From: a virus
DNA length: 15,139 nucleotides
Reading direction: 5' to 3' (one strand)
IMG/VR virus record: IMGVR_UViG_3300045988_135748
Shown: piece after piece, positions 978-15,000 of the stretch
Layout: every line of letters starts with the position of its first letter
Position numbering within the stretch: position 1 is the stretch's first letter
The notes under the pieces: generated by a model
Seen by the model: only the letters and a program-made list of their open reading frames with translations
Told to the model about the DNA's origin: nothing
The model's database searches: none
Translations under genes and position numbers: made by a program

Positions 978-3095
978 ATGGAAATTATAAATGTACCTTT
1001 AAAAGACAATTCCATATCTAAAGAAATAGCATATAATATAAACGATTTTCCTTATAAAAATTTCGCAGACTGCGAAATTGTGACAAAAAAAGGTAAACAC
1101 GGATATTCTGCTTATAATATTCCGGTGGCTTTCGATATAGAAACATCCACAATAGAACCTCACTTTATCTATGATAATCACGGTAGAAAAGTTTATGACA
1201 CGCCGCCGTTCGGCTTTATGTATCATTGGCAATTCTGCCTAATTGATACGGTCATTTTCGGTCGCACATGGGAAGAATTTCAGATTTTCCTTGCGCGATT
1301 AAAAAAATACATGAGTTTGAATGATAAACAACGGCTAGTTATTTATGTACACAATCTTTCTTTTGAATTTCAGTTCATGCAGAACTTTATCACGGTTTCA
1401 GACCTTTTCGCTAAAGACGAACGTAAACCGCTTAAGCTGTCCGGCGGTGGCTTCGAGTGGCGGTGTTCTTATTTTTTATCGAATATGAGTTTGGCTAAAT
1501 TTTGCGAAAATTCTAAAACATGTACGCATGTGAAGCTAAACGGTGAAGAGTTTAATTATAAAAAAATACGTACACCGCGGACGAAATTATTAGAATACGA
1601 AAAAGGTTATTGCTATAATGATGTGCGCGGGTTGTGCGAATGTATCGCAGAGAAGTTAACGGAGTATGATATATTAAGGATTCCGCTCACTTCTACTGGA
1701 TATGTTCGCAACGATTTTCGGAACGCCGTGACCGCTAATCCTATGAACCGTACTATTTTTCTATCTTCTGCGCTATCACCGGAAGAATACACGCAATGCC
1801 GTGACGCGGTGACAGGTGGCGTAGCGCACGCAAATCGGTTTTATTCGAATCAGATTTTAAAAAATCTACGTAGTAGAGATATACAGAGTAGTTATCCGTA
1901 TCAGTCTGAAAGTAAACTTTTTCCGGTTGGTAAATGGTCAAAGATTTCCGTAGAATCGAAAAAAGAACTTGACTTTTTATGTGAAAATTACGCTTGTATT
2001 TTTACGGTTCGCTTTTTCAATATCGAGACAAAAGCAAACACGCCAATTCCATACATCTCTGTATCGAAATGCAAGGAACATTATGAAATTTTAAATGACA
2101 ACGGCAAACTCCTTTCCGCGAAAGAAATTATGACAACAATTACGAACGTAGATTATGAGATAATAAAAGAGGTTTACAACATATCTTCTTTTCAGATTAT
2201 TAAATTCATGTATTGCCGAAAAGAAAGAATGTCACTAGAATACAGACAACAGAATCTCGAATTTTACGAAGCGAAAACAAAATTAAAAGGAATAGAAACC
2301 GCGTACTATGAGTACATGAAAAGCAAAAATAAACTTAATGGTGCATACGGAATGGAAATTACAGATATATGCCATGATATTATAAATTGGAGTGGTGGTG
2401 AATGGTCAAGCGTAAAGGCTAACGCTGACAAATTAAAAAAAGACTTAGAAAGTTTTTATAAATCACGAAAAAATTTTCTCATATACCAGCAGGGTGTATT
2501 CGTTCCTGCGTATGGACGCGCTCAGCTTTATGACGCGATTCGAATAACCGGAAACGATACCGTTTATGTTGACACCGATTCCGATAAATATTTTAAGGAC
2601 CACGAACTAGCGTTCGAGGATTACAATAGAAAACTAATCGAAGAAGCAAAAAAGAGTAACACTTGTCTTGTGGCGAAAAATTCAAAAGGTCAACTGTGCT
2701 ACGCGGGAATATTTGAAAAAGATGCCGAATACAAGACTTTTAAAACGTTAGGTGCGAAAAAATATTGCTATGAAACTTTCGATAAGAAAAAAAATAAGTA
2801 TGTGTTCGGGATTACAGTTGCTGGAATGTCGAAAGAAAAAGGCGCGAAAGCCGTAGGAAATGTCGGAAATTTTAAAATCGGAAATACTTTTGAAAATGTT
2901 GGACGGTCGACAGCTTATTATAATGACACTGATAAAATTTTCAAGATAACCGTAAATGGTGATACGTTCACCACATCAAGTAATATTGGTATTGTGGAAG
3001 CCACATATACTTTAGGGGTAACGGACGAATATTCAAATATTATTATGAGTTGTCAGAAAATAAAAGATTCTGAAAAAATTGAAAAAAATAGTTGA
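978..3095 (+). CDS. Protein-primed family-B DNA polymerase (phi29 gp2-like), 705 aa
   Basis: Exonuclease motifs: ExoI AFDIETS, ExoII HNLSFEF, (S/T)Lx2h MSLAKF, ExoIII YCYNDVRGL. Polymerase motifs: A DIQSSYP, B KNKLNGAYGM, Tx2GR-like VPAYGR, C YVDTDS, and KxY GAKKYCY. Confidence 0.97.
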   Translation: MEIINVPLKDNSISKEIAYNINDFPYKNFADCEIVTKKGKHGYSAYNIPVAFDIETSTIEPHFIYDNHGRKVYDTPPFGFMYHWQFCLIDTVIFGRTWEEFQIFLARLKKYMSLNDKQRLVIYVHNLSFEFQFMQNFITVSDLFAKDERKPLKLSGGGFEWRCSYFLSNMSLAKFCENSKTCTHVKLNGEEFNYKKIRTPRTKLLEYEKGYCYNDVRGLCECIAEKLTEYDILRIPLTSTGYVRNDFRNAVTANPMNRTIFLSSALSPEEYTQCRDAVTGGVAHANRFYSNQILKNLRSRDIQSSYPYQSESKLFPVGKWSKISVESKKELDFLCENYACIFTVRFFNIETKANTPIPYISVSKCKEHYEILNDNGKLLSAKEIMTTITNVDYEIIKEVYNISSFQIIKFMYCRKERMSLEYRQQNLEFYEAKTKLKGIETAYYEYMKSKNKLNGAYGMEITDICHDIINWSGGEWSSVKANADKLKKDLESFYKSRKNFLIYQQGVFVPAYGRAQLYDAIRITGNDTVYVDTDSDKYFKDHELAFEDYNRKLIEEAKKSNTCLVAKNSKGQLCYAGIFEKDAEYKTFKTLGAKKYCYETFDKKKNKYVFGITVAGMSKEKGAKAVGNVGNFKIGNTFENVGRSTAYYNDTDKIFKITVNGDTFTTSSNIGIVEATYTLGVTDEYSNIIMSCQKIKDSEKIEKNS

Positions 3096-3127
3096 CACTT
3101 TATAGAATCTGTACTATTATAATTACA
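3092..3127 (+). promoter_or_regulatory. Strong sigma-A promoter P2 (early block)
   Basis: TTGACA (3092-3097, overlapping the polymerase stop codon), 17-nt spacer, TATTAT (3115-3120). An A-tract lies upstream. The predicted +1 is A3127, which starts AGAAATAAGAACAAG. Confidence 0.75.
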
Positions 3128-3168
3128 GAAATAAGAACAAGACATGATAGAAAGAGAGGTTACAAAAA

Positions 3169-3543
3169 ATGAACAAAACAATATACGAACTTAATGAGGA
3201 AGTAAAAAAGGCAAGCTGGAAAACCCCTACTTGCGAATTAGAACAGATAAAATTAGATATTTCTGAAAAAATGAATGATAATGGAATATCAGCTTTTACT
3301 TATATAGTATTATCAGAGTGGTATGAAAGAATACACCGTTTAACTTTTAAAGAAACAACTAATCCAGATTACATTATTAAAAATGAATTCGGCGAAAAAG
3401 TGGGTTTGATTAAAATCAATAATGTATTTGGAAAAAAAGTATTAGTTGATTTATGGCTTTACCATGAAAAAATAGGTTGCATGAGTATGGATAACGCGAT
3501 TAAAAAATGTAACGAATTATCTTTATACATAAAAGAGGTGTGA
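3169..3543 (+). CDS. Hypothetical early protein, 124 aa
   Basis: It has the consensus RBS AAAGAGAGGT 9 nt before the ATG and is the first gene after P2. I recognise no motif. Confidence 0.75.
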   Translation: MNKTIYELNEEVKKASWKTPTCELEQIKLDISEKMNDNGISAFTYIVLSEWYERIHRLTFKETTNPDYIIKNEFGEKVGLIKINNVFGKKVLVDLWLYHEKIGCMSMDNAIKKCNELSLYIKEV

Positions 3544-3548
3544 AAAAA

Positions 3549-3938
3549 ATGCAGACAACAATTATTAAGACAAATAGAAAATGGTATTTAGAAACAGTTG
3601 ATAATTTAAGATATTTATGTAAAATTCCAATGCGTTTATCAGTTGACAATCTGATTAGATTTGTTCCGCAATTCGAATATTTAGAAAGAACGAAACTTCT
3701 TTCGCAGGATATGAAAAATTTTATTTACAATAAAGGTATTCCGGTTTTATATATGGAAAACAGAGAGATAGTATACATGGATGAAATACGTTGGAGTGAT
3801 GGTACATACAAGTTTTATATAAACCGTAATTTATCAATCGGAGATAAAAATACTTTGACTTTATATGTGTACCATCCAGTATATGCAAGTGTTTATGATA
3901 TGATGCCGATTGGCGTTGTATTAGAAGACAGGTTTTAA
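3549..3938 (+). CDS. Hypothetical early protein, 129 aa
   Basis: I prefer the ATG at 3549 over the GTG at 3540 in the ORF track because the AAAAGAGG spacing matches other genes here. I recognise no motif. Confidence 0.7.
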   Translation: MQTTIIKTNRKWYLETVDNLRYLCKIPMRLSVDNLIRFVPQFEYLERTKLLSQDMKNFIYNKGIPVLYMENREIVYMDEIRWSDGTYKFYINRNLSIGDKNTLTLYVYHPVYASVYDMMPIGVVLEDRF

Positions 3939-3958
3939 ATGTTTCACGTGAAACATTT
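3937..3958. promoter_or_regulatory. CACGTG-core palindrome copy A (22-bp perfect)
   Basis: aaaTGTTTCACGTGAAACAttt. It overlaps the stop codon of the upstream gene. A -10-like TAAAAT follows at 3959-3964. Confidence 0.6.
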
Positions 3959-3994
3959 TAAAATAAAAAATAACAAGAAAGAGAGGTGAAGAAA

Positions 3995-4231
3995 ATGATT
4001 AGAACAATCACAAAATATCACGTTCATGAAGTAATTGACAAAGAGACGAAAAAAGTTCTCGGAGAATTACAGTTACCAAAGAACACTTATTCGCCGAAAG
4101 CCGCAAAAAAGATATTAGAAGAAAATGGATATATTACCAACGATTATGCGCTTGTTTATAAGTGCGCGGTGCAGGAAAAACGTGAACTTTCTGACGAAGA
4201 TTTCATCAAGTATTCAAAAGTAGTCGAGTAA
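3995..4231 (+). CDS. Candidate phi29 p6-like dsDNA-binding (histone-like) protein, 78 aa
   Basis: The start is the ATG at 3995, 8 nt after GAGAGG. The pattern RTITKYHVHEV...LQLPKNTY...EKRELSDEDFIKYSKV parallels phi29 p6 REITKTTVNV...EQLPSETF...EVYELPVEKFLEVATV as I remember it. It is adjacent to the SSB, as in phi29. Confidence 0.5.
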   Translation: MIRTITKYHVHEVIDKETKKVLGELQLPKNTYSPKAAKKILEENGYITNDYALVYKCAVQEKRELSDEDFIKYSKVVE

Positions 4232-4282
4232 TAACAGTACAGGAAAAAACAAAAAATTTAAAGAAAAAGAGAGGAAAATAAC

Positions 4283-4624
4283 ATGAAAATTACAAACACT
4301 TATAACATCACAGACAAAAAAGATTTTGTTCGCGCGAACAATGACGCGAAAGCAGTAACCGATTTTAAAAATACGACATTAAAAGTTTCCGGAATTATCT
4401 TCGGGACAACTACGAATAAGGACGGAGACGAAGTAAAGACCGTGGTCATTAAGACCAGTGACGGAGATTTCATTGGAACAATTTCTCCAACAATGGTGGA
4501 ATCTATGGAAGTTGTAGCTGACGTATTCGAGGATGAAATTACAGACGGCGCGAAAGATATGGACGTCATCATTAAAACCGGAAAGAGTAACGCAGGTCGC
4601 GAATATTATTACGCATCCATTTAA
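4283..4624 (+). CDS. Candidate phi29 gp5-like single-stranded DNA-binding protein, 113 aa
   Basis: TVVIKTSDGDFIGTISPTMVESMEVVADVF...IIKTGKSNAGREYYYASI parallels phi29 gp5 [31 protein letters not shown]...VVQGTSSKGNVFFSLQL as I remember it. The RBS is AAAGAGAGG. Confidence 0.55.
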   Translation: MKITNTYNITDKKDFVRANNDAKAVTDFKNTTLKVSGIIFGTTTNKDGDEVKTVVIKTSDGDFIGTISPTMVESMEVVADVFEDEITDGAKDMDVIIKTGKSNAGREYYYASI

Positions 4625-4636
4625 TTTATAAAAAAT

Positions 4637-4672
4637 TGTTTCACGTGATTCTTGAATGTTTCACGTGAAACT
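4637..4672. promoter_or_regulatory. CACGTG-core palindrome copies B1 and B2 (tandem)
   Basis: TGTTTCACGTGA occurs at 4637-4648 and again at 4657-4668, with centres 20 bp apart. B2 is a 14-bp perfect palindrome (4658-4671). In B1 the right half is degenerate. Confidence 0.6.
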
Positions 4673-4687
4673 TTTAAAGGTGATAAC

Positions 4688-5758
4688 ATGAAAAAAGAAG
4701 AACCGATGCACAATTATGACGAGGGTTTTTTTAATTTAATGGACTACTTAGAAATAACAGATAGAAATCATAAAAAACCGTCTATTCGTATATTTGCCAC
4801 TAATAGAAGTGGCGGAAAAACATACTCTTTATTGTGGTATTTTATAAGAGAATTTCGCGCCGGAAATGAACAATTTGTACTTGAATACCGTACGCGTTCG
4901 GAAATGCTAGGCGTGGATAGTATTTTTTCTTGCGTTGTAGCAGACAAGTTCCCAGATATGGAAATCACTTCGATACCGATTGCTTCCGGCATTATCCGTC
5001 AGATTATGAACCATGATGAAATTATTGGGTTTGCGGTATCAATTTCCGATTGTGACAAGTTAAAAAAATACAGTCCGATTTTTGACAAAGTAAAGCGCGC
5101 AGGCATGGACGAATTCCAGCTTGAAAAAACAGAAGACTATCTAAAAAATGAGGTTGACAAGTATCTGTCCGTTGCATATACTATTTCAAGAGGCGGCGGA
5201 AAACAAGGAAAAGAAGTTGAGTTTTTTTTACTCGGTAACTCTTTTTCGCAGATAAACCCTTATTTGTTACAGTTGGGATGTTATCGCGAGAAGCCGGACA
5301 AAAACGGAATAATACGCGGAGATTCATATATTTACGTTGAAACGGTAAACGAATCAGCGAAAAAGCAGACAAGTGAACTAGGTATTTCAAAAGCATTCGC
5401 AGGAAACCGCCATGTACAGTACGCCACGAAAAACATAGGAATTTATAATGATAATGAATTTATAGCGAATTTGTCTGGAAAAAGTACATACCTTTTAACA
5501 TTTGTGCAGAACGGTGAACGTTTCGCAATTCGCGAATGTCATAAGGACAATTTGCTTTATATTAATCAAAAAATAGATAAGGACGCGAAATGTTTTACCC
5601 TTGATAACGCCGACCATGGCGAAAATACAATACTTTTAACAAGGTTTAGTGGATTAGCGCAGACCTTAAAAGAAGCGTATTCACAAGGTCAGGTGCGTTT
5701 CTGTGATTTGAAATCAAAAGACGCTTTTCTTCATTTAATCGGTAGGGAAATTTTTTAA
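4688..5758 (+). CDS. DNA encapsidation (packaging) ATPase, phi29 gp16-like, 356 aa
   Basis: Walker A ATNRSGGKTYSL (phi29 GARGIGKSYAM) and Walker B AGMDEF (phi29 IVFDEF). Also NEQFVLEYRTRSEM (phi29 GEQFIYVRRYKPEL) and LLGNSFSQINPYLL (phi29 CLSNAVSVVNPYFL). The start is the ATG at 4688 after AAAGGTGA. The TTG at 4652 in the track lies inside the palindrome region. Confidence 0.9.
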   Translation: MKKEEPMHNYDEGFFNLMDYLEITDRNHKKPSIRIFATNRSGGKTYSLLWYFIREFRAGNEQFVLEYRTRSEMLGVDSIFSCVVADKFPDMEITSIPIASGIIRQIMNHDEIIGFAVSISDCDKLKKYSPIFDKVKRAGMDEFQLEKTEDYLKNEVDKYLSVAYTISRGGGKQGKEVEFFLLGNSFSQINPYLLQLGCYREKPDKNGIIRGDSYIYVETVNESAKKQTSELGISKAFAGNRHVQYATKNIGIYNDNEFIANLSGKSTYLLTFVQNGERFAIRECHKDNLLYINQKIDKDAKCFTLDNADHGENTILLTRFSGLAQTLKEAYSQGQVRFCDLKSKDAFLHLIGREIF

Positions 5759-5765
5759 AAAATAG

Positions 5766-5802
5766 TTGACAAAAGATAAAAACAAGTGGTATTGTATATA
5801 TA
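5766..5802 (+). promoter_or_regulatory. Strong sigma-A promoter P3 (only visible promoter ahead of the lysis/structural genes)
   Basis: TTGACA (5766-5771), 18-nt spacer ending TGg, TATTGT (5790-5795). It shares the upstream sequence AAAAATAGTTGACA with P2. The predicted +1 is A5802, which starts AGAAACAAG. Confidence 0.75.
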
Positions 5803-5840
5803 GAAACAAGAAAACAACAGCACAGAAAAGGAGAAAAAAC

Positions 5841-6074
5841 ATGACATCACATGAATTATTAAAATTAACAACCGAAGAAAATTTGAAAAAACTAACAAAA
5901 GAGAAAGAAAATGAATGTGATAAATTCGAAGTTTACGCACATTTAAAAATATTAGAAAAAAGGTTAGCACAAGCGGAAGTTATAGAAAAAGACATTGAAA
6001 TTAAGTATCTTTTAGAGGCAAGATACGTATCTCTAACCGGATTTATTTTTAACTATATTCGTAACTTATACTAG
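5841..6074 (+). CDS. Hypothetical small K/E-rich coiled-coil protein, 77 aa
   Basis: The start is the ATG at 5841 after AAAAGGAG. The TTG at 5766 in the track is the -35 box of P3. The C-terminus is hydrophobic (VSLTGFIFNYIRNLY). Confidence 0.6.
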   Translation: MTSHELLKLTTEENLKKLTKEKENECDKFEVYAHLKILEKRLAQAEVIEKDIEIKYLLEARYVSLTGFIFNYIRNLY

Positions 6075-6075
6075 G

Positions 6076-6195
6076 TATATACCGCGTAGCAAATTTCAAT
6101 CACGTGGGAAAACACGTTTTAGCCGGAGTGATTACCGGACGCGGTTTATATAAAACAGCGGCGCGGTGGCAATCTTAAGCCACCGTAAAACCGCG
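6076..6195 (+). other. GC-rich structured intergenic element (candidate RNA leader/switch or pRNA-like ncRNA)
   Basis: A three-way junction is formed by stem 6076-6087/6139-6152 (12 bp with a 2-nt bulge), hairpin 6102-6106/6113-6117 and hairpin 6123-6126/6135-6138. A further hairpin is 6163-6170/6179-6186, extended by 6158-6161/6191-6194. Four CCGCG/CGCGG segments allow alternative pairings. Confidence 0.4.
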
Positions 6196-6214
6196 AAAAA
6201 ATAGGAGAGTGGAA

Positions 6215-6622
6215 ATGAAAACAGAATGGAGTATTTTACTAAGTGGATTAGTAGGGATTTTTAGTCAGATTTTTGGCGGGTTCGATAACTTGTTTATCGG
6301 TTTACTTGTAATTATGGCAGTCGATTACGCAACCGGAATTATAGCCGCAGTTCTTGGAAAAAGTGGCAAAACAAAAAACGGTCACTTGTCAAGCAAGGCA
6401 GGTTTTAAAGGAATTTTGAAAAAATTGACAATGTTACTTTTCGTGTGTATGACAAAATATGCAGGTGAAATGCTTGACATAAAAGGATTGCGCGATATGG
6501 TTATCACATTTTTCGCGGTGAATGACTGTATTAGCGTTTTAGAAAATACCAGCAGAATTGGTGTAAAATATCCGAAAAAACTGAAAAACATGTTAGAGGA
6601 TTTATTAGAAAGAGAGGAATAA
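6215..6622 (+). CDS. Holin (Phage_holin_4_1 / TcdE-like family), 135 aa
   Basis: Family signature: DYATGIIAAVL...SSKAGFKGILKKL...NDCISVLENTSRIGV..PKKL. It has predicted transmembrane segments and a charged C-terminus. The start is the ATG at 6215 after AGGAGAG. Confidence 0.9.
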   Translation: MKTEWSILLSGLVGIFSQIFGGFDNLFIGLLVIMAVDYATGIIAAVLGKSGKTKNGHLSSKAGFKGILKKLTMLLFVCMTKYAGEMLDIKGLRDMVITFFAVNDCISVLENTSRIGVKYPKKLKNMLEDLLEREE

Positions 6623-6625
6623 AAA

Positions 6626-7390
6626 ATGAAAATACTTGTAATTGCGGGACACGGCGCAGGGGATTGCGGAGCAGTTGGAAACGGTTTCAGAGAAGCAGAC
6701 TTGACAAGAGAGTTAGCAGGATATGCAGTAAATGCGTTAAATGAGATAGCTGACGTGATAATATATGACACGGCTAGAAACTGTTATCGTGATATTAAAA
6801 ATAATGCAAACGGCGCGAAAGAACTATTAAAAAGCGTTGATTTTGTGTTAGAGCTTCATCTTAATTCTTTTTCAAGTAACAACGCGCAGGGCGTGGAAGT
6901 CTTATGCAAGCGCGATAGCGTATTTTCTCGGACACTTGCGGAAAAAGTATCGAATTGCGGATTTTCTAATCGTGGCGTAAAACTTAGAAAAGATTTATTA
7001 AACATGAATTACTGTGACAGCATTGATAAGCCTTATGTATTATTAGAATGCGGTTTTATTACGAATTATCATGACGTTTCAGTTTTTAAAAATTCGCAGG
7101 AAAAAATCGCGCAGGCTATTGCACAGTCTTTTAAAGTATGTTATAATTTAGAAGAAAAGAAAAGTAATTCTAAATTATACAGAGTACAGGTTGGAGCGTT
7201 CGCAAGGAGAGAAAACGCGGAAAAGTTAAAAAAACAGCTTGCTACAAAAGGTTTTAACTGCTTTATCACCTCGAAAGAGGACAATTTTTATCGTGTTCAG
7301 TGTGGCGCGTTCGAATCAGAAACTAACGCGATTAATTACCGCAATCAAATTATCAAAGCAGGATTTGACGCTTTTGTAAAAGGTTTCTAA
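6626..7390 (+). CDS. Endolysin: N-acetylmuramoyl-L-alanine amidase (Amidase_3) with C-terminal SPOR domain, 254 aa
   Basis: Amidase_3 motifs: IAGHGAGDCGAVG..READL, ELHLNSF, GVE, LLECGFITN. The C-terminal SPOR signature is YRVQVGAFARRENAEKLKKQL...FYRVQCGAFESETNA. Confidence 0.93.
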   Translation: MKILVIAGHGAGDCGAVGNGFREADLTRELAGYAVNALNEIADVIIYDTARNCYRDIKNNANGAKELLKSVDFVLELHLNSFSSNNAQGVEVLCKRDSVFSRTLAEKVSNCGFSNRGVKLRKDLLNMNYCDSIDKPYVLLECGFITNYHDVSVFKNSQEKIAQAIAQSFKVCYNLEEKKSNSKLYRVQVGAFARRENAEKLKKQLATKGFNCFITSKEDNFYRVQCGAFESETNAINYRNQIIKAGFDAFVKGF

Positions 7391-7392
7391 CT

Positions 7393-7986
7393 ATGTGGCA
7401 TTACGTTGAAACAAATAAATTTGGTGCGCTGTCACAATCTGAAATGCAAGACAATGTTGACGAGATTTATCTTATCTTAAAGGACGAATGGACACTAGAA
7501 GCGATTAGTGGCATGCTAGGAAACGCACAGCAAGAGAGCGGAATGAATCCGGCTCAATGGCAATATGACTATCCTATTGGAACAACGATAGGTGGCTACG
7601 GACTTTATCAGTGGACACCCTCCACGAATTATACAGATTACGCGACTGCAAACGGTTATGACTGGAAAGACGGAAAAGAGCAGGTTAAAGCTATGAATAA
7701 ACCGATTCCGTCTGACCAGTGGTCAGAAAAAAACAGCGGCTACACGTTCGAAGAATTTAAACAATTGACGAATGTTGACACCGCTACACAAGCGTTTTAC
7801 GCAGGGTTCGAGCGCGCCGGTATTCCGGCTACAGAACAACGTCTACAGTATGGGCGCAACTGGTATATATATTTAAGCGGCAAGCCGCCATCACCGACCG
7901 AAGTAGTCAGCGTTTTAAAAAACGTTTTTTACGGTAATAAGAAAATTTTATACCGTGGAAAAATAAATAATTTTTTAAAAAAGTGA
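7393..7986 (+). CDS. Second peptidoglycan hydrolase, phage tail lysozyme-fold domain, 197 aa
   Basis: EAISGMLGNAQQESGMNP...GGYGLYQWT matches the phage tail lysozyme domain signature (GN..ES, G..QWT). It is translationally adjacent to the amidase. Confidence 0.7.
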   Translation: MWHYVETNKFGALSQSEMQDNVDEIYLILKDEWTLEAISGMLGNAQQESGMNPAQWQYDYPIGTTIGGYGLYQWTPSTNYTDYATANGYDWKDGKEQVKAMNKPIPSDQWSEKNSGYTFEEFKQLTNVDTATQAFYAGFERAGIPATEQRLQYGRNWYIYLSGKPPSPTEVVSVLKNVFYGNKKILYRGKINNFLKK

Positions 7987-7995
7987 GGTAAAAAA

Positions 7996-8250
7996 ATGAC
8001 ATTTGAAGAAGCTATTAAAAAGGTCGCGGAAGTCTTAGACGTGACGGAAAATGATGAAGTTTTCGAAGCGTTAAAAGGTGGAGAAGCAAATTCCGGAGAA
8101 TGGGAGCAGAAATACAATGAATTAAAAAAGAAGTATACAGAAAGATTCATTGAAGAAATCACGAAAAAACCGGAAGAGAAGAAAGAAGAAAAAGAAGAAA
8201 AAGAAGAAGTCAAAATTGAAGATTTAGATTTTGACGGTTCTACAGAATAG
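7996..8250 (+). CDS. Scaffolding protein (phi29 gp7-like), 84 aa
   Basis: It is a small, acidic, helical protein immediately upstream of the capsid gene. Its C-terminal VKIEDLDFDG resembles phi29 gp7 ITIEDLEAK. It has an E/K-rich tract. Confidence 0.65.
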   Translation: MTFEEAIKKVAEVLDVTENDEVFEALKGGEANSGEWEQKYNELKKKYTERFIEEITKKPEEKKEEKEEKEEVKIEDLDFDGSTE

Positions 8251-8268
8251 AAAGAGAGGTTTTAAAAA

Positions 8269-9546
8269 ATGGGAAATGTAAAAGCTACAAATCTTAATGT
8301 TTTAAACGCTATGCGAAATAGCGGACTTCTTCCGGCTGACAGATTACCGGAAGTTACACTTGAAAATATCGCGTCCGTTTATGAACAGATTTTAAATGTG
8401 GAAGTAATTCGAAGCGCGTTCGCTTCGGCTTTAATTGAACAGATGGTGCAAGGGCGTATTAATTCCGCGTACTTTAGAAACCCGCTTGGAATGTTAAAAA
8501 GTAATCCAATGCGATACGGTGCAACCGAGCAAGAAATTTTTGTAAATATGGCAAAAGCGCAGGTATTTGACGGATTCGCTGACGCGTCCGTACTTTATAA
8601 ATACTATGAGGGTGAAGTCTTGGCGGCTTATCATCATATGTCACCGGCTTTACAGTATCCTATCACGGTTACTTATGACAATATGAGAAATGCTTTTCAG
8701 ACAGAATACGGAATCATGGACTTGATTCGTGCAAAAGTAGAATCTACTGTTTCCGGCGCGGAATGGGATGAATATTTAAGCATGAAGCAGTTAGTTGTTT
8801 CGGCGTACAATTCTTCACAGCTTTTCCCGGTGCAGGTAGCCGAACCAACTGACGAAGCAAGCGCGAAGGCGTTAACCATTGCTATGAAAACATGGATAGG
8901 AAAAATGAAGTTTCCGAATAAAAATTTGAATATTGCAGGTGCTGACAGTAACGCCCTTCTTGACGGTATCTATTACATGGTGACGCCTGAAGTGGACGCG
9001 GTCCTTGACGTTGACGTATTGGCTTACGCATTTAATATGAACAAAGCGGATATTGAAGCGCATAAAATTGTAATTGATTCTTTCGGAAATGACGATATTA
9101 AGGTAGCCTTATTCGATATGCGTTGGTATCGAGTGCGCGAGCAGTATCGTGTGATGTCAGATAGTAAGAACGGTGCGGCTTTGACTTGGACATATTTTTA
9201 TAATATCAAGAATATGTATTCATATAGTCCATTCTTCCCGTGTATCGCGTTCACCACAAAAAGTGTTAGTATGAAGCAGATTGACGTTACACCGATTGCG
9301 GACGCAAAAAAAGGTAGCGAGTACAAGATTACCGCTTTAGCCGCACCAAATACCGTAGGTGATTACGTTTTACAGACTTTCGATTATGAAGTCAGCGGAA
9401 ACACATCCACACACACGGCTTTTGTCCCTGGTAGCAACGTCTTAATGATTGCGAATGACGAAAAAGCGGAAAGTCTTACCGTGACCGTTAAAGCGCATTG
9501 GGACAATTCAATCACCGGAACAGCTACAGTAACAATCACAGGTTAA
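8269..9546 (+). CDS. Major capsid protein (phi29 gp8-like) with C-terminal Ig-like domain, 425 aa
   Basis: LNAMRNS, NPLGMLK..G.TEQEIF, AEWDEYLSMKQLV and LDVDVLAYAFNMNKADI...VIDSF parallel phi29 gp8 VNAIRNS, NPLKKFK, AEVDEYEYMKLLV and LDVDVLAKAFNMNRTDF...VIDGF. The C-terminal ~90 aa looks like a BIG2-type Ig domain. Confidence 0.93.
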   Translation: MGNVKATNLNVLNAMRNSGLLPADRLPEVTLENIASVYEQILNVEVIRSAFASALIEQMVQGRINSAYFRNPLGMLKSNPMRYGATEQEIFVNMAKAQVFDGFADASVLYKYYEGEVLAAYHHMSPALQYPITVTYDNMRNAFQTEYGIMDLIRAKVESTVSGAEWDEYLSMKQLVVSAYNSSQLFPVQVAEPTDEASAKALTIAMKTWIGKMKFPNKNLNIAGADSNALLDGIYYMVTPEVDAVLDVDVLAYAFNMNKADIEAHKIVIDSFGNDDIKVALFDMRWYRVREQYRVMSDSKNGAALTWTYFYNIKNMYSYSPFFPCIAFTTKSVSMKQIDVTPIADAKKGSEYKITALAAPNTVGDYVLQTFDYEVSGNTSTHTAFVPGSNVLMIANDEKAESLTVTVKAHWDNSITGTATVTITG

Positions 9547-9547
9547 T

Positions 9548-9563
9548 TGTTTCACGTGAAACA
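9548..9563. promoter_or_regulatory. CACGTG-core palindrome copy C (16-bp perfect)
   Basis: TGTTTCACGTGAAACA lies 2 nt after the capsid stop codon and 8 nt before the RBS of the next gene. Confidence 0.6.
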
Positions 9564-9587
9564 TTAATATAAAGAGAGGTAAGAAAA

Positions 9588-11177
9588 GTGGAAAATTTTA
9601 TTGAAATGCCGACACAACATGAAATAATAGGCATATCCCCGGAAACTACAATTAATTTGTGTGCCGGAATACCGTGGGATAACGGTTATAAAAATATAAG
9701 GTTGTTTAATTCGGTTTCAGAGTTGGACACTTTTCTTCTCTCAAAAACTGTGAAAACAGAAGTGAATGCAAGTCCAGTTAAAATCGGACAATTGACTGTT
9801 AGACTTCCCTATAACGAAATCGAGCCGCTTAATTGTAACTATCTTTATTTCTCAAATAAGCCACTTGAGCGGAAAAACCACTACGCTTTTATCACCGGAG
9901 TGACACCTCTTAGCGTGAATAGTTGTCTAATCACTTTTGAGTTAGACGTTTGGCAGGAGAACTTTTCAAAAATCGAAATTAACCCCTGTTATATTGTGAG
10001 AAGCCACATACCGAAAAGCGCGGACATTATTGGAAATTATACTTTTCCGGAGAGTTTAGAAGTTGGACAGTATGTCTATAATTTACCGGATTCGTCAGAA
10101 TTTACAGTATCGGTTGACGGTACATATCCAGACCCCGCCACATCTTTCCGAGTGAGTGAGGGGTTATTCCCGCCAGTGCGAAACGGTTATAGTCCAACGG
10201 ACAAGGAATCTAATTTTTATTTTTTAATGTACTGGAATACAAAAGAAGATGACAAAACAAAACAAATTATTAACGGTATTTATTACGGTTGTAATTATGA
10301 CAGATATGTCACTTCTACAGACATTCAGACAAAAATTAATAATATGACCGCCGAAGAAGCTAGCAACATTATCGCGATTGGTCTTGCACCTTATATTTTC
10401 TTAGGAACTGAAAAATGCACGGTATCTCTTAAAAAGTATAGCGACTTTATCGGAACATATAAACCGAAAAATAATAAGTGTTTCTGTTACCCTTATAATT
10501 TTATCGGACTAAATAACGGTCAGACCACGTTGGAAAGTTTAAAACTTGAATATTTTAACGGAGATAATGCGCCTTTTGAAATATTCATGCCACCGGACAC
10601 GATTCCGACCATGTTAGTTACTCCGAGAAATTACTGTAACTTAGCAGAGAATAGACAGTATCAGATTTCATTTAATGACTTCCCAAAACTAGGAGTTCCA
10701 ATTGATTCGCTTAAGGCGTATATCGCTAATAACTCAATAGCAATCGGTGCACAAGCTGCAACAACGGCTTTTCACGCTTATAGTGGAGATATTGTGGGGG
10801 CGGGAAAGGGTGCGTTAAACGTTATCACCGGACTGCAAAAAGCCGATACCGCAAGCGATTCGTCATTCACAAGCGCGGGCGGATATACTAGTTTTTGGGC
10901 GAAAAATATGGGAATCCGGCTTGTTAGAATCCATTGCGCGGAAGAATACATTCAGAAAATAGATAATATATTCACAGTTTACGGCTACAGAATAGAAGAA
11001 CTCGGAAAACCGAATATTAAAAGTCGTGCTTCGTGGAATTATTTACAAGCAAAGGACGTTACATTTAAAGGTATCACAGAACCGCAGGCAAGGGAAAAGT
11101 TAACTTCAATTATTGAAAATGGCGTGTTCTTTTGGCACACGAATGACGTTGGAAACTTTTCGCTTGAAAATAATTAA
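9588..11177 (+). CDS. Tail knob / distal tube protein (phi29 gp9-like), 529 aa
   Basis: The start is a GTG, 8 nt after AAAGAGAGG. IPWDNGYKNIRLF, HYAFITGV...ITFELDVWQENF, YIVRSHI and the C-terminal YGYRIEELGKPNIKSRASWNYLQAKD...NGVFFWHTNDVGNFSLEN parallel phi29 gp9. Confidence 0.9.
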   Translation: MENFIEMPTQHEIIGISPETTINLCAGIPWDNGYKNIRLFNSVSELDTFLLSKTVKTEVNASPVKIGQLTVRLPYNEIEPLNCNYLYFSNKPLERKNHYAFITGVTPLSVNSCLITFELDVWQENFSKIEINPCYIVRSHIPKSADIIGNYTFPESLEVGQYVYNLPDSSEFTVSVDGTYPDPATSFRVSEGLFPPVRNGYSPTDKESNFYFLMYWNTKEDDKTKQIINGIYYGCNYDRYVTSTDIQTKINNMTAEEASNIIAIGLAPYIFLGTEKCTVSLKKYSDFIGTYKPKNNKCFCYPYNFIGLNNGQTTLESLKLEYFNGDNAPFEIFMPPDTIPTMLVTPRNYCNLAENRQYQISFNDFPKLGVPIDSLKAYIANNSIAIGAQAATTAFHAYSGDIVGAGKGALNVITGLQKADTASDSSFTSAGGYTSFWAKNMGIRLVRIHCAEEYIQKIDNIFTVYGYRIEELGKPNIKSRASWNYLQAKDVTFKGITEPQAREKLTSIIENGVFFWHTNDVGNFSLENN

Positions 11178-11199
11178 AATGTTTCACGTGAAACATTTT
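11176..11199. promoter_or_regulatory. CACGTG-core palindrome copy D (24-bp perfect)
   Basis: aaaaTGTTTCACGTGAAACAtttt overlaps the tail-knob stop codon. Confidence 0.6.
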
Positions 11200-11215: not shown

Positions 11216-12103
11216 ATGAATCCATGTAAAGAGAAAAACACAATGAACCAAGGCGAACGCTACCAACAATATTATACGCGTTACTACTTTCTTTTAAGAA
11301 ATATATATACTTCTCGTTTTAAGTGGACTTTACCGGAAGAAATTCCGCCGCGATTTCTAGAAGAAATTCTATTAGATTATGGTGAAGCTATTTTTTTTAA
11401 GGATGATGTAACGGAATTGTATGCAGTAGCAAAGATTGACGAAGCTGGACGAATGGATAATTATAATCACGGAGAGATGCGATTCGCATATGCGAATAAC
11501 TATGTTGGAGAATACACAAAAGAAAATAGTGTATTAATATATGACAGTTACAGTCAGTACCCATACAATGACATTATCGTCATGCACGCTGAAGCACTAG
11601 CAACAATGCGATTGACACGTGACTTGAACTTAGTTGCGTTGCGCACGCCGTATATATGCGCTGGGAATCGAAATACAAAACTGACTGTTTCAAACCTTTT
11701 CAAACAGCTTGCGAATTTCATTCCATGGATAACGGTCAATGACAAGTTCGATATGAACACCTTAAAAGTCCTCAATCTTGACGTGCCATACAACGCTAGC
11801 AACATACAGGCATTGATGAAGCAGGAGATTTCTGATTTTTTAACAGAAATCGGAATTGCGAATAACGGCGACACAAAAAAAGAACGGATGATAACGGGAG
11901 AAGTTGAAAGTAATAACGGTATTACAGAAATTAATCTGAAAAGTGCACTTGAACTTAGAAAAAGAAGTTGCGTACAGATTCGAAAAGTGTTTAAATTAAC
12001 CGAAGAAGATGTGAATGTTGAGCCGCTTAGTAAGATTGATGTTAGCGGAATATATCAGCAGTTTGGCATGACTAACAGTGAGGACGGTGGAGAAAATGAG
12101 TAA
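11216..12103 (+). CDS. Portal / upper collar connector protein (phi29 gp10-like), 295 aa
   Basis: [30 protein letters not shown] parallels phi29 gp10 [46 protein letters not shown] parallels KKERMVTDEVSSNDE. Confidence 0.93.
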   Translation: [295 protein letters not shown]

Positions 12104-12851
12104 CATGGGTTATCCTACTACGTCAATAGGATTTTTACTAGCGTACTACGGCGGCGTAAATATGTACGCCGGAGAAAATACTGGATTTGATTTAGTAGAA
12201 AAATTCTATTCAAAACTATTTGATTTTGATTTTCCTTTTTATGTAGAAAATGAAAAAATAAAGGTTGAGTTTGAAAAGTATTTATGTTATACTTATTTCA
12301 ACGAATCGATTGGATTCGAAACGCCGGAGGCGTGGAAGTTTGCATTTAAACAGAAAATGCTTGAAATCATTCCGTATTATAAAGAATTATATCGGACAAC
12401 CCTTTTCGAATATGAGCCGCTTATAAATCGCGTGTTTACTTCTTCCGATAACGTGAACGAGACCGGAATTAGTGACTATACAAGTAATGGTAATACAACC
12501 GGAAAAAGCGAGAACAGTACAAACGGTAACGGTTCAAGTACAAGTGATTCGCAGAATATTACAAGTGACACGCCGCAGATTAATTTTTCTCAAAACGACT
12601 ATGCAAGTGGTATGACAAGGGGGCAGAATAAAAATTCTGTAGAAAATTCAGAGAAAAAAACAACTTCCGATTCCGGTACAAGCAGTACAGTTTCAAAAAA
12701 TATAAACGATAAAAACAGAATTTTAAAACACGAAGAAAAAGGGTTTTCCGGTAGTTATCAAGAGGAAATTCGGAAAATCAGAGAAAACATTCTGAACATT
12801 AATAAACTGATATGCGACGATTGTTACGATTTATTCATGTTGATTTATTAG
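12096..12851 (+). CDS. Probable lower collar protein (phi29 gp11 position), 251 aa
   Basis: The ATG at 12096 overlaps the portal stop (ATGAGTAA) and follows GGTGGAG. The call rests on synteny with phi29 genes 10-11. The central S/T/N-rich tract is low complexity. Confidence 0.55.
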   Translation: MSNMGYPTTSIGFLLAYYGGVNMYAGENTGFDLVEKFYSKLFDFDFPFYVENEKIKVEFEKYLCYTYFNESIGFETPEAWKFAFKQKMLEIIPYYKELYRTTLFEYEPLINRVFTSSDNVNETGISDYTSNGNTTGKSENSTNGNGSSTSDSQNITSDTPQINFSQNDYASGMTRGQNKNSVENSEKKTTSDSGTSSTVSKNINDKNRILKHEEKGFSGSYQEEIRKIRENILNINKLICDDCYDLFMLIY

Positions 12852-14368: not shown

Positions 14369-14403
14369 TTTTCTAGGGAATTGATTCCCTAGAAAATTTT
14401 TTT
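14369..14403. terminator. Rho-independent, probably bidirectional terminator
   Basis: A 12-bp stem TTTTCTAGGGAA/TTCCCTAGAAAA (14369-14380/14385-14396) has the loop TTGA and is followed by T7. The upstream A-run gives a T-run on the other strand. Confidence 0.85.
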
Positions 14404-14423: not shown

Positions 14424-14460
14424 TTGACATTTTTATAGAAGGCGTGGTATTATAATTATA
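14424..14460 (+). promoter_or_regulatory. Strong sigma-A promoter P4 (right-end gene)
   Basis: TTGACA (14424-14429), 18-nt spacer ending TGg, TATTAT (14448-14453). The predicted +1 is A14460, which starts AGAAACAAG. Confidence 0.75.
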
Positions 14461-14501
14461 GAAACAAGGAAATGATAAAACAGAAAAGAGAGGTAGAAAA
14501 A

Positions 14502-14798
14502 ATGTATACTTACAAGGCAAACGGAAACTACACACAAGAAATCTTAGAAAACGGCAACGTGCTTAGAACTTTTGAAACTGACGTAGCAGGTGTATATATC
14601 TTAGCAGAATATACAATGTTAAAATGTGGCGCAACATTGACCGCGCACTATAGCTTAGTAGCCGCGAAAACACAAAACTTTCAATCGAGAAAGTCAATAA
14701 AAAACGACCCTATCCATGGAACATATGAAATGGCTTCAACTATAGTGTATGAAGAGATAGACGGAGATATTGAATTACCGGAATATCTCGAACGGTAA
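14502..14798 (+). CDS. Hypothetical right-end early protein, 98 aa
   Basis: The start is the ATG at 14502, 9 nt after AAAGAGAGG; the track's ATG at 14472 lacks an RBS. It has its own promoter. The stop codon lies 1 nt from the ITR boundary. I recognise no motif. Confidence 0.7.
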   Translation: MYTYKANGNYTQEILENGNVLRTFETDVAGVYILAEYTMLKCGATLTAHYSLVAAKTQNFQSRKSIKNDPIHGTYEMASTIVYEEIDGDIELPEYLER

Positions 14799-14802
14799 TT
14801 TT

Positions 14803-14861
14803 CGAACACGTGTTCCATTTCTCGGCTGTTCGCCGCCCGCGGACAGTCGAACGTTTGTTCT
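14803..14861. promoter_or_regulatory. Right-ITR copies of the SOS-box-like sites
   Basis: CGAACACGTGTTCC (14803-14816) contains the perfect palindrome GAACACGTGTTC. The second site is CGAACGTTTGTTCT (14848-14861). Confidence 0.4.
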
Positions 14862-15000
14862 AATTTATTATCAGAAATCTTTATGAATTGTCAGAATATT
14901 TTGAAAACAGTTGTCGAAATCGAATATTGTCTGATAATTCATTGTCTAAATTGCACAATTTTCGTGCAGGTTTCAAGCTAAAATTTGTTGAAATTGCCTA

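Follow-up and report, generated by a model that had tools for sequence, protein, structure and literature searches.

Introduction

Host parS sites on virulent phi29-like phages have been known since 2005, when five such sites were described on phi29 and the host protein Spo0J was found to be involved in moving the phage genome into the prespore (Meijer et al. 2005, as cited in PMC2731898). The present analysis concerns IMG/VR virus record IMGVR_UViG_3300045988_135748, of which the whole stretch of 15,139 bases (hereafter the window) looks like a complete linear phi29-like phage genome, and a palindrome centred on CACGTG that is repeated in its intergenic gaps. In the original prediction this palindrome was assigned to a sequence-specific dimeric protein acting as an operator or roadblock, or to an RNA-processing factor; here we propose that it is parS, the binding site of the chromosome-partition protein ParB, called Spo0J in Firmicutes. 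ParB is a DNA-bridging protein that binds parS as a dimer, recruits SMC and is itself moved by ParA. At parS it nucleates as a CTP-locked sliding clamp, which spreads over kilobases and runs off free DNA ends unless it is blocked (PMC7053999).

Identity of the repeated palindrome

The 16-mer TGTTTCACGTGAAACA is letter-for-letter the optimal parS of Bacillus subtilis, for which the consensus is TGTTNCACGTGAAACA (PMC4333373). Three copies in the window, at 3940, 9548 and 11180, are perfect and match this consensus exactly, while the copy at 4657 deviates at one position and the copy at 4637 at three, its left half being intact (Table 1). At up to three mismatches the window holds five occurrences of the 16-mer against 0.13 expected, and the CACGTG hexamer occurs eight times against 2.08 expected, a count reached in 0 of 200 shuffles. 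Extended by its flanking A and T, the site reads AATGTTTCACGTGAAACATT as a 20-mer.

The copies span 3940-11195, about 7.3 kb of the 15.1-kb genome, and each lies 1-32 nt past the preceding stop codon. parS-A begins 1 nt past the stop of gene 3549-3938, with gene 3995-4231 downstream; parS-B lies downstream of the gene of a protein resembling single-stranded DNA-binding protein (SSB; stop at 4624) and ahead of the gene for the gp16-type packaging ATPase (ATG at 4688); parS-C follows the stop of the major capsid gene (9546) by 1 nt, upstream of the tail-knob gene (GTG at 9588); and parS-D follows the tail-knob stop (11177) by 2 nt, upstream of the connector gene (ATG at 11216). Runs of four to five T follow copies A, B and D. 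The number of copies given in the original prediction stands, as do the coordinates and lengths of its four perfect palindromes (22, 14, 16 and 24 bp) and the observation that the copy at 4637-4650 keeps only its left half; the five gaps reported there are in fact four, since the copies at 4637 and 4657 share the gap between the SSB-like and ATPase genes. A recount returned the same eight CACGTG hexamers, seven of them non-coding and the eighth (11616) inside the connector gene and without flanking symmetry. The placement just ahead of the next ribosome-binding site, noted earlier for all non-coding hexamers, applies to the five parS copies but not to the other non-coding CACGTG sites.

Among the matches listed, all literature containing the 16-mer string deals with ParB/parS or with origin regions. 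The sole megablast match of the whole window was an exact run of 34 nt between copy A and contigs named 'Listeria phage' (UNVERIFIED_ORG), where the matching site lies just upstream of a ParA gene that is followed by a ParB gene, with a second perfect parS inside parB. The encoded ParB carries ParB_N, HTH_ParB and ParB_C domains, and the locus is the classic chromosomal soj-spo0J arrangement. In OR846716.1 29717-37750 (L137, 'Listeria phage LM 4-11-1', UNVERIFIED_ORG) this chromosomal-type parA-parB locus has perfect parS at 2422 and 4004; the 34 bases identical between its site and copy A represent more flank identity than a 16-bp site explains. No ParB_N, HTH_ParB or ParA domain was found in the 19 window proteins (Pfam, PHROGs), and a tblastn search with the Listeria ParB as query (E<=1) gave no ParB match in the 81 genomes described below.

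Judged by their sequence, the palindromes are almost certainly parS, and binding by the host ParB in vivo is very probable. That they are functional parS, serving as nucleation sites of the chromosomal ParB on a phage that lacks ParB, is in our estimate likely, with a probability of roughly 0.75. As the palindrome is exactly the optimal parS, its binder would be the host segregation protein rather than a phage operator regulator or an RNA-processing factor. Of the original prediction, the sequence-specific dimeric protein is thus likely to be correct, in the form of host ParB/Spo0J, while the operator, roadblock and RNA-processing roles are not retained. By analogy with phi29, the phage most likely rides on the chromosome-partition machinery of its host.

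Conservation among relatives

Relatives were selected by capsid homology alone (36-97% identity) to avoid circularity, which yielded 80 genomes (1.11 Mb), or 81 with the window. A perfect parS is present in 70 of the 80, usually in three to five copies, with totals of 242 perfect and 44 one-mismatch sites; in the same 80 genomes none of 839 composition-matched control palindromes, made by permuting the half-sites, occurs at all. The parS-bearing contigs have a G+C content of 29-41%, and for several of the 70 the nearest database relatives come from human faeces. The palindrome is extended by its flanks: of 245 sites, 237 have A at -1 and 238 have T at +1. In 40 of 78 related genomes the ATPase gene has a site just ahead of it.

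An exact scan of IMG/VR for the 16-mer returned at least 120 loci; among the matches listed, about 27 are small phi29-like genomes related to the window, and the G+C content of motif-bearing viral contigs reaches 72%. Five unrelated IMG/VR contigs with 50-72% G+C (L021, L061, L073, L023 and L088) hold arrays of three to five perfect parS in stretches of about 0.8-2.4 kb. Among the motif-bearing IMG/VR loci listed (at least 120), one had a ParB detectable by BLAST within the limited flanks covered. In a 17-kb relative (L133) two perfect parS at 1305-1460 flank a stretch with the tRNA-like T-arm sequence GGTTCGATTCC.

The four gaps were compared with those of the close relatives L121-L124, whose capsid identity is 94-97%. 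As the original prediction had suggested checking, the motif is found at the syntenic positions, with turnover at sites B, C and D. Site A is present in all four relatives, its core reading CACGCG in L123. The tandem of B' and B is kept in L121, L122 and L124, where the B copy is perfect, and has decayed in L123; the same left-half remnant precedes a perfect site in L129, at about 42% capsid identity. Site C is perfect in L121, mutated with broken pairing in L122, altered by a 1-nt deletion in L124 and missing from L123, where a 21-bp indel with TTAAT repeats on its flanks has removed it. Site D persists in L121-L123 and shows in L124 the same 1-nt deletion variant as its site C. This 15-nt variant, TGTTCACGTGAAACA, which is one T short in the left arm, occurs at site B of L123 and sites C and D of L124, and could be real decay or a homopolymer assembly error.

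In the alignment of the gaps the decay in L122 and L123 is non-compensatory, and no substitute repeated palindrome was found in the relatives without parS; instead of hairpins of unrelated sequence, relatives keep the exact sequence at these positions or nothing. In the clade of L125, L127 and L131, a canonical terminator hairpin precedes parS by about 15 nt. Since decay is non-compensatory and sites are lost without a replacement hairpin, the letters rather than the fold are selected, as had been predicted, with single sites dispensable and a hairpin not needed at these positions. The sites are mutually redundant; they come and go through small insertions and deletions in non-coding DNA.

Sites in phi29 and other cultured phages

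In our scan phi29 contains four copies of TGTTTCACGTGGAACA, three inside genes and one (17243) directly after the packaging ATPase gene, and both Nf and B103 contain one perfect site plus a variant one. The Clostridium perfringens phage phiZP2 (L219, NC_018084) carries six sites (5836, 5861, 7736, 9810, 9835 and 12862), three of them perfect and three reading TGTTTCACGTGAAACG; all six lie between genes, in two gaps as tandem pairs with a 25-bp spacing. One perfect site was found in the C. innocuum phage CI130P1 and a single one-mismatch site in each of CI461P1, CI644P5 and DK1. At up to one mismatch no parS was found in PumA2, CpV1, phi24R and susfortuna, nor in Cp-1 (Streptococcus), Av-1 (Actinomyces), BadAztec1 (Bifidobacterium) and Reje (Curtobacterium). 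Counted in this way over the 16 cultured phi29-like phages, sites are present in 8 of 12 phages with endospore-forming hosts versus 0 of 4 with non-spore-formers (Fisher one-sided p=0.038).

The genome paper of phiZP2 mentions neither parS nor Spo0J, and a 2024 review covering some 2000 phi29-like genomes is silent on parS, Spo0J and spores. What appears to be unreported in the literature searched is the near-universal presence of perfect, mostly intergenic parS in three to five copies in the gut/clostridial phi29-like clade, including a cultured C. perfringens phage.

Alternative explanations

Several observations weigh against a functional parS or are not accounted for by it. When coding and non-coding positions were called with the 5' ends of open reading frames trimmed (as ATG followed by TTTCACGTG opens a reading frame), 245 of 290 sites (84%) were non-coding or at a gene edge, categories that together make up 13.5% of the sequence, a bias that ParB binding alone fails to explain; the A/T extension of the palindrome is likewise left unexplained. 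The conserved tandem pair upstream of the ATPase gene, 4637-4672, which as RNA can form a stem of 11 bp at -17.8 kcal/mol with UUUU behind it, is not required by ParB binding either. The sites of phi29 are mostly inside genes, whereas those of the window are intergenic. The Spo0A box TGTCGAA, which at early promoters provides the second arm of the phi29 spore strategy, occurs 3 times in the window against 2.78 expected, and 85 times across the 81 genomes against a mean of 122 for permuted 7-mers. The association of parS with spore-formers is suggestive, in a sample of cultured phages that is small and phylogenetically non-independent, and the four cultured phages of spore-formers without sites mean that parS is not obligatory. 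Finally, the nearest genomic relatives of the endolysin/amidase in a search of 185,579 genomes are Clostridia metagenome-assembled genomes, which are weak matches at 32-48% identity, and a look-up of exact protein matches led to one ENA metagenome scaffold and to no host. The simplest account of the intergenic bias is that a palindrome of 16-20 bp can be gained by small insertion only where no protein is encoded, which fits the TTAAT-flanked indel at site C.

The bias, the A/T extension and the conserved tandem layout count in favour of RNA-level hairpins at the 3' ends of cistrons, i.e. leaky terminators, attenuators, 3' stabilisers or processing sites, as the sole role of the palindromes or an added one, as do their position shortly past stop codons inside operons and the T runs after copies A, B and D. 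Single-site hairpins, however, reach just -6.8 to -9.5 kcal/mol with two G:C pairs, compared to -21.7 kcal/mol for the real terminator at 14369-14403, and no copy passes a terminator scan. The combination of a G+C-rich stem and a U tract that marks an intrinsic terminator is lacking in the single sites and borderline in the tandem at B. Selection for a hairpin would not require the same 16 letters in every gap and in phages at 25-40% protein identity, nor does it agree with the non-compensatory decay, the deletions without a replacement hairpin or the clade in which the site already follows a canonical terminator, and it would reduce the identity with parS to a coincidence. A terminator or RNA hairpin was rejected as the primary role given the weak folds, the same letters everywhere and the non-compensatory losses; an RNA-level explanation is unlikely overall, although a secondary role of this kind may exist, above all at site B.

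Two other explanations keep a protein as the binder. In B. subtilis, loss of Spo0J deregulates Soj and blocks entry into sporulation. With this genetics in mind, the sites could be a decoy, high-copy parS that titrates the host ParB, dissolves partition complexes, disturbs SMC loading and frees ParA/Soj control of DnaA and of sporulation entry; the perfect-consensus sites, presumably those of highest affinity, at three to five per 15 kb, and the lack of a phage ParB or ParA would suit it. The Spo0J-dependent effect described for phi29 (PMC2731898) is, on the other hand, entrapment of the genome and not host manipulation; sites inside genes would titrate as well, so that the observed placement is not predicted, and ParB on phage DNA is still a ParB-parS complex that could stimulate ParA. 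Titration of ParB is therefore possible but unsupported, and we regard it as decidedly unlikely. In the second explanation, a dimeric regulator encoded by the phage would use the sites as operators or roadblocks, stoperator-like or of the phi29 p4 type, to time early and late genes; this would go with sites that are dyad-symmetric, multi-copy and intergenic inside operons, with several small phage proteins that have no assigned function, and with the location of the site just past a TATAAT-like element in some relatives. Yet a private pair of regulator and site should co-diverge, whereas the motif is identical across phages at 25-40% protein identity and beside chromosomal parAB, and its pattern differs among close relatives with unchanged gene order. 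No conserved candidate DNA-binding protein was detected, and a phage-encoded binder was rejected, as no ParB, helix-turn-helix (HTH) protein or repressor was found among the 19 window proteins (Pfam, PHROGs). The suggestion that copy A occupies the -35/spacer position of a TAAAAT promoter, in the way of a p4-type activator site, is not supported, since copy A is not among the listed sigma-70-like promoter sites and no p4-like architecture was found there, and a function in setting gene timing or stoichiometry is unsupported, given that sites are lost in close relatives without replacement and that one clade has the site after a genuine terminator. With the site invariant while all phage proteins diverge, a phage operator is very improbable. 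The least probable proposal has the palindromes extrude as hairpins on the single strand that is displaced in the course of protein-primed replication, where they might be pause or loading sites, for instance: the genome does have a protein-primed family B polymerase and an SSB-like gene, and palindromes can fold as single-stranded DNA, but the single-site DNA folds are marginal (-3.9 to -7.0 kcal/mol), it is the sequence rather than the pairing that is conserved, and the same motif is common in replicons without this mode of replication, which leaves it hardly any likelihood.

Genome organization and other repeated elements

The window is bounded by inverted terminal repeats of 340 nt with one mismatch between them (330/14810), and all of its genes are on the + strand (Table 1). 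Phi29_MCP, gp9, connector, gp16 ATPase and protein-primed PolB domains were all found among the window proteins (Pfam/PHROGs). The nearest cultured relatives are Bacillus and Clostridium phi29-like phages, with a capsid identity of only about 28-32%, and uncultured human-faecal phage records are as close in capsid as these.

Table 1. Coordinates of parS copies and assigned genes in the window.
Feature	Coordinates	Strand	Remarks
parS-A	3940-3955		perfect TGTTTCACGTGAAACA; palindrome extends over 3937-3958 (22 bp)
parS-B'	4637-4652		degenerate TGTTTCACGTGATTCT; 3 mismatches, left half-site intact; 4 nt upstream of parS-B
parS-B	4657-4672		TGTTTCACGTGAAACT; sole mismatch is the last base; 4658-4671 perfect 14-bp palindrome
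parS-C	9548-9563		perfect; 16-bp palindrome
parS-D	11180-11195		perfect; palindrome extends over 11176-11199 (24 bp)
SSB-like protein	4283-4624	+	weak phi29-SSB match
gp16 packaging ATPase	4688-5758	+	
Holin	6215-6622	+	
Endolysin	6626-7390	+	Amidase_3 + SPOR
Tail lysozyme	7393-7986	+	
Capsid protein	8269-9546	+	Phi29_MCP
Tail knob gp9	9588-11177	+	GTG start 9588
Connector gp10	11216-12103	+	ATG start 11216
Lower collar	12096-12851	+	

Strong sigma-70-like promoters are located near 3092, 5766 and 14424, in addition to a TTATAAT at 383-389, and a canonical terminator was found by folding at 14369-14403. The three strong promoters belong to near-identical promoter-plus-leader modules (3092-3171, 5766-5830 and 14424-14504), each consisting of TTGACA, a spacer of 17-18 nt, TATTATAAT or TATTGTATAT and a conserved ATAGAAACAAG leader, and their repetition suggests coordinated transcription units.

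Two further CACGTG sites had been described as related to the palindrome, and both were rejected as its relatives. The site at 6094-6112 has six mismatches to the 16-mer outside the core, and its hexamer (6101-6106) is one stem arm in a conserved non-coding structure of about 130 nt that is common to five genomes. In L123 the hexamer at 6101 reads CATGTG, with a compensating change on the partner strand; both arms changing together is a signature of RNA pairing, which the five palindrome copies do not show. The structured stretch, 6075-6206, lies between gene 5841-6074 and the holin gene, and RNAalifold on the five genomes gave -45 kcal/mol with 33 pairs, two of them compensatory. With a gp16 ATPase and a gp10 connector encoded in the genome, this stretch is a candidate packaging RNA (pRNA); an Rfam search of the whole window at E<=1 gave two spurious eukaryotic matches and no pRNA, including that of phi29.

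The second site, 14804-14815 (GAACACGTGTTC, with CACGTG at 14807), is a LexA-box-like GAAC-N4-GTTC element of the terminal repeat, with invariant arms and a variable centre that reads ACGT, ATGT or ATAT in four relatives. Each terminal repeat has two such boxes, at 280-291 and 325-336 (mirrored at 14849-14860 and 14804-14815), and the window contains five GAAC-N4-GTTC against 0.23 expected. The inner box at 325-336 is GAACATGTGTTC and precedes the -35 element of the leftmost promoter by some 25 nt; the sole mismatch between the repeats, 330 T versus 14810 C, falls in its centre, so only the right-end copy reads CACGTG. In L123 the box reads GAACATATGTTCG, which we take to be the core of the B. 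subtilis LexA consensus, and on sequence grounds the boxes may place the early operon under SOS control. Between the two boxes, 290-318 and 14822-14850 form a G+C-rich hairpin with a 12-bp stem, of which the right-end copy is terminator-like for the last gene, 14502-14798. Near each genome end, at 60-83 and 92-115 (mirrored on the right), two direct 24-mers contain ACACACGGACACT and may be sites of a replication-initiation protein. Each terminal repeat also holds one perfect TGTCGAA (222-228 and 14912-14918), and three TTCG(A/C)(A/C)(A/T) repeats spaced 10-12 bp apart at 334-362 (TTCGAAA, TTCGAAT and TTCGCCT) directly adjoin the -35 region of the leftmost promoter; of the three, TTCGAAA alone is within one mismatch of the Spo0A box.

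Use of the host LexA is a strategy of the tectivirus GIL01. A comparable, and in our view rather doubtful, scenario for the window is that a phage without integrase and repressor has a latent, plasmid-like or carrier state run by the host, in which ParB on parS partitions the linear genome capped by terminal protein and LexA on the boxes represses it until SOS. The boxes upstream of the leftmost early promoter (first early gene 408-974; polymerase) would then hold replication off. If true, this would extend the GIL01-type LexA strategy to a tailed phage and join it to a hijacked chromosome partition, and many 'virulent' gut phi29-like phages would not be strictly virulent.

Proposed role and implications

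With the palindromes read as host-type parS, the host ParB would load at four positions after injection and coat essentially the whole 15-kb genome, with the covalently attached terminal proteins perhaps acting as end-blocks against run-off of the clamp. Following the phi29 precedent, the coated phage DNA would coalesce with the origin-proximal partition complexes of the host and be inherited alongside the chromosome. It would be carried into the forespore if the infected cell sporulates, or into daughter cells in a delayed or carrier infection, and would survive there until lytic growth can resume. That entrapment in spores specifically is the selected benefit has, by analogy, an even or slightly better than even chance.

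A host-type parS on a virulent phage means that the cell can handle the phage genome as part of its own chromosome origin, and in phi29 parS is a route into the spore, the most durable vehicle of a gut Firmicute. The occurrence of the pattern in 70 of the 80 relatives and in a cultured C. perfringens phage suggests that persistence in spores or daughter cells may be the norm among these abundant small phages. If so, phages classed as 'lytic' could survive and pass from host to host by routes that are not now assumed, which bears on phage therapy against clostridia. It would also change the annotation of parS-like palindromes in viromes, where an orphan consensus parS would be a simple sequence marker for predicting a spore- or daughter-borne lifestyle.

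Comparison with known systems

The stoperators of cluster A mycobacteriophages, which the model of the original prediction resembles, are 13-mers without symmetry that follow the direction of transcription and are recognized by a repressor of the phage itself. Like the sites of the window, they consist of a short conserved sequence that recurs many times in the narrow intergenic gaps of operons, close to stop codons; unlike them, the motif of the window is a perfect palindrome identical to the site of a host protein, in a genome where no phage repressor was found. Plasmids and plasmid-prophages of the P1, N15 and mycobacteriophage RedRock type carry parABS cassettes with their own ParA and ParB and a private centromere beside these genes. 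The sites of the window would likewise be repeated ParB-binding centromere sites on an extrachromosomal replicon, but the phage has neither ParA nor ParB, and its sites are the universal chromosomal consensus and dispersed. The same 16 bp are found in the chromosomal parS of Firmicutes such as B. subtilis and the Listeria locus, the latter sharing 34 nt with copy A. Chromosomal sites are clustered near oriC beside parAB, whereas the phage sites are dispersed at about one per 3-4 kb on a 15-kb genome without par genes.

The closest parallel is offered by phi29, Nf and B103, which share with the window the virulent phi29-like podovirus type, protein-primed replication, the lack of ParB and several scattered host-type parS. 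Differences concern the capsid protein, which in the window is only about 27% identical to that of phi29, the sites themselves, which are one-mismatch TGTTTCACGTGGAACA in phi29 and perfect-consensus and A/T-extended in the window, and the Spo0A boxes, which partner parS in phi29 and are not enriched in the window. One position is common to both groups: the phi29 copy that follows the packaging ATPase gene (17243) has its counterpart at the same position in many gut relatives.

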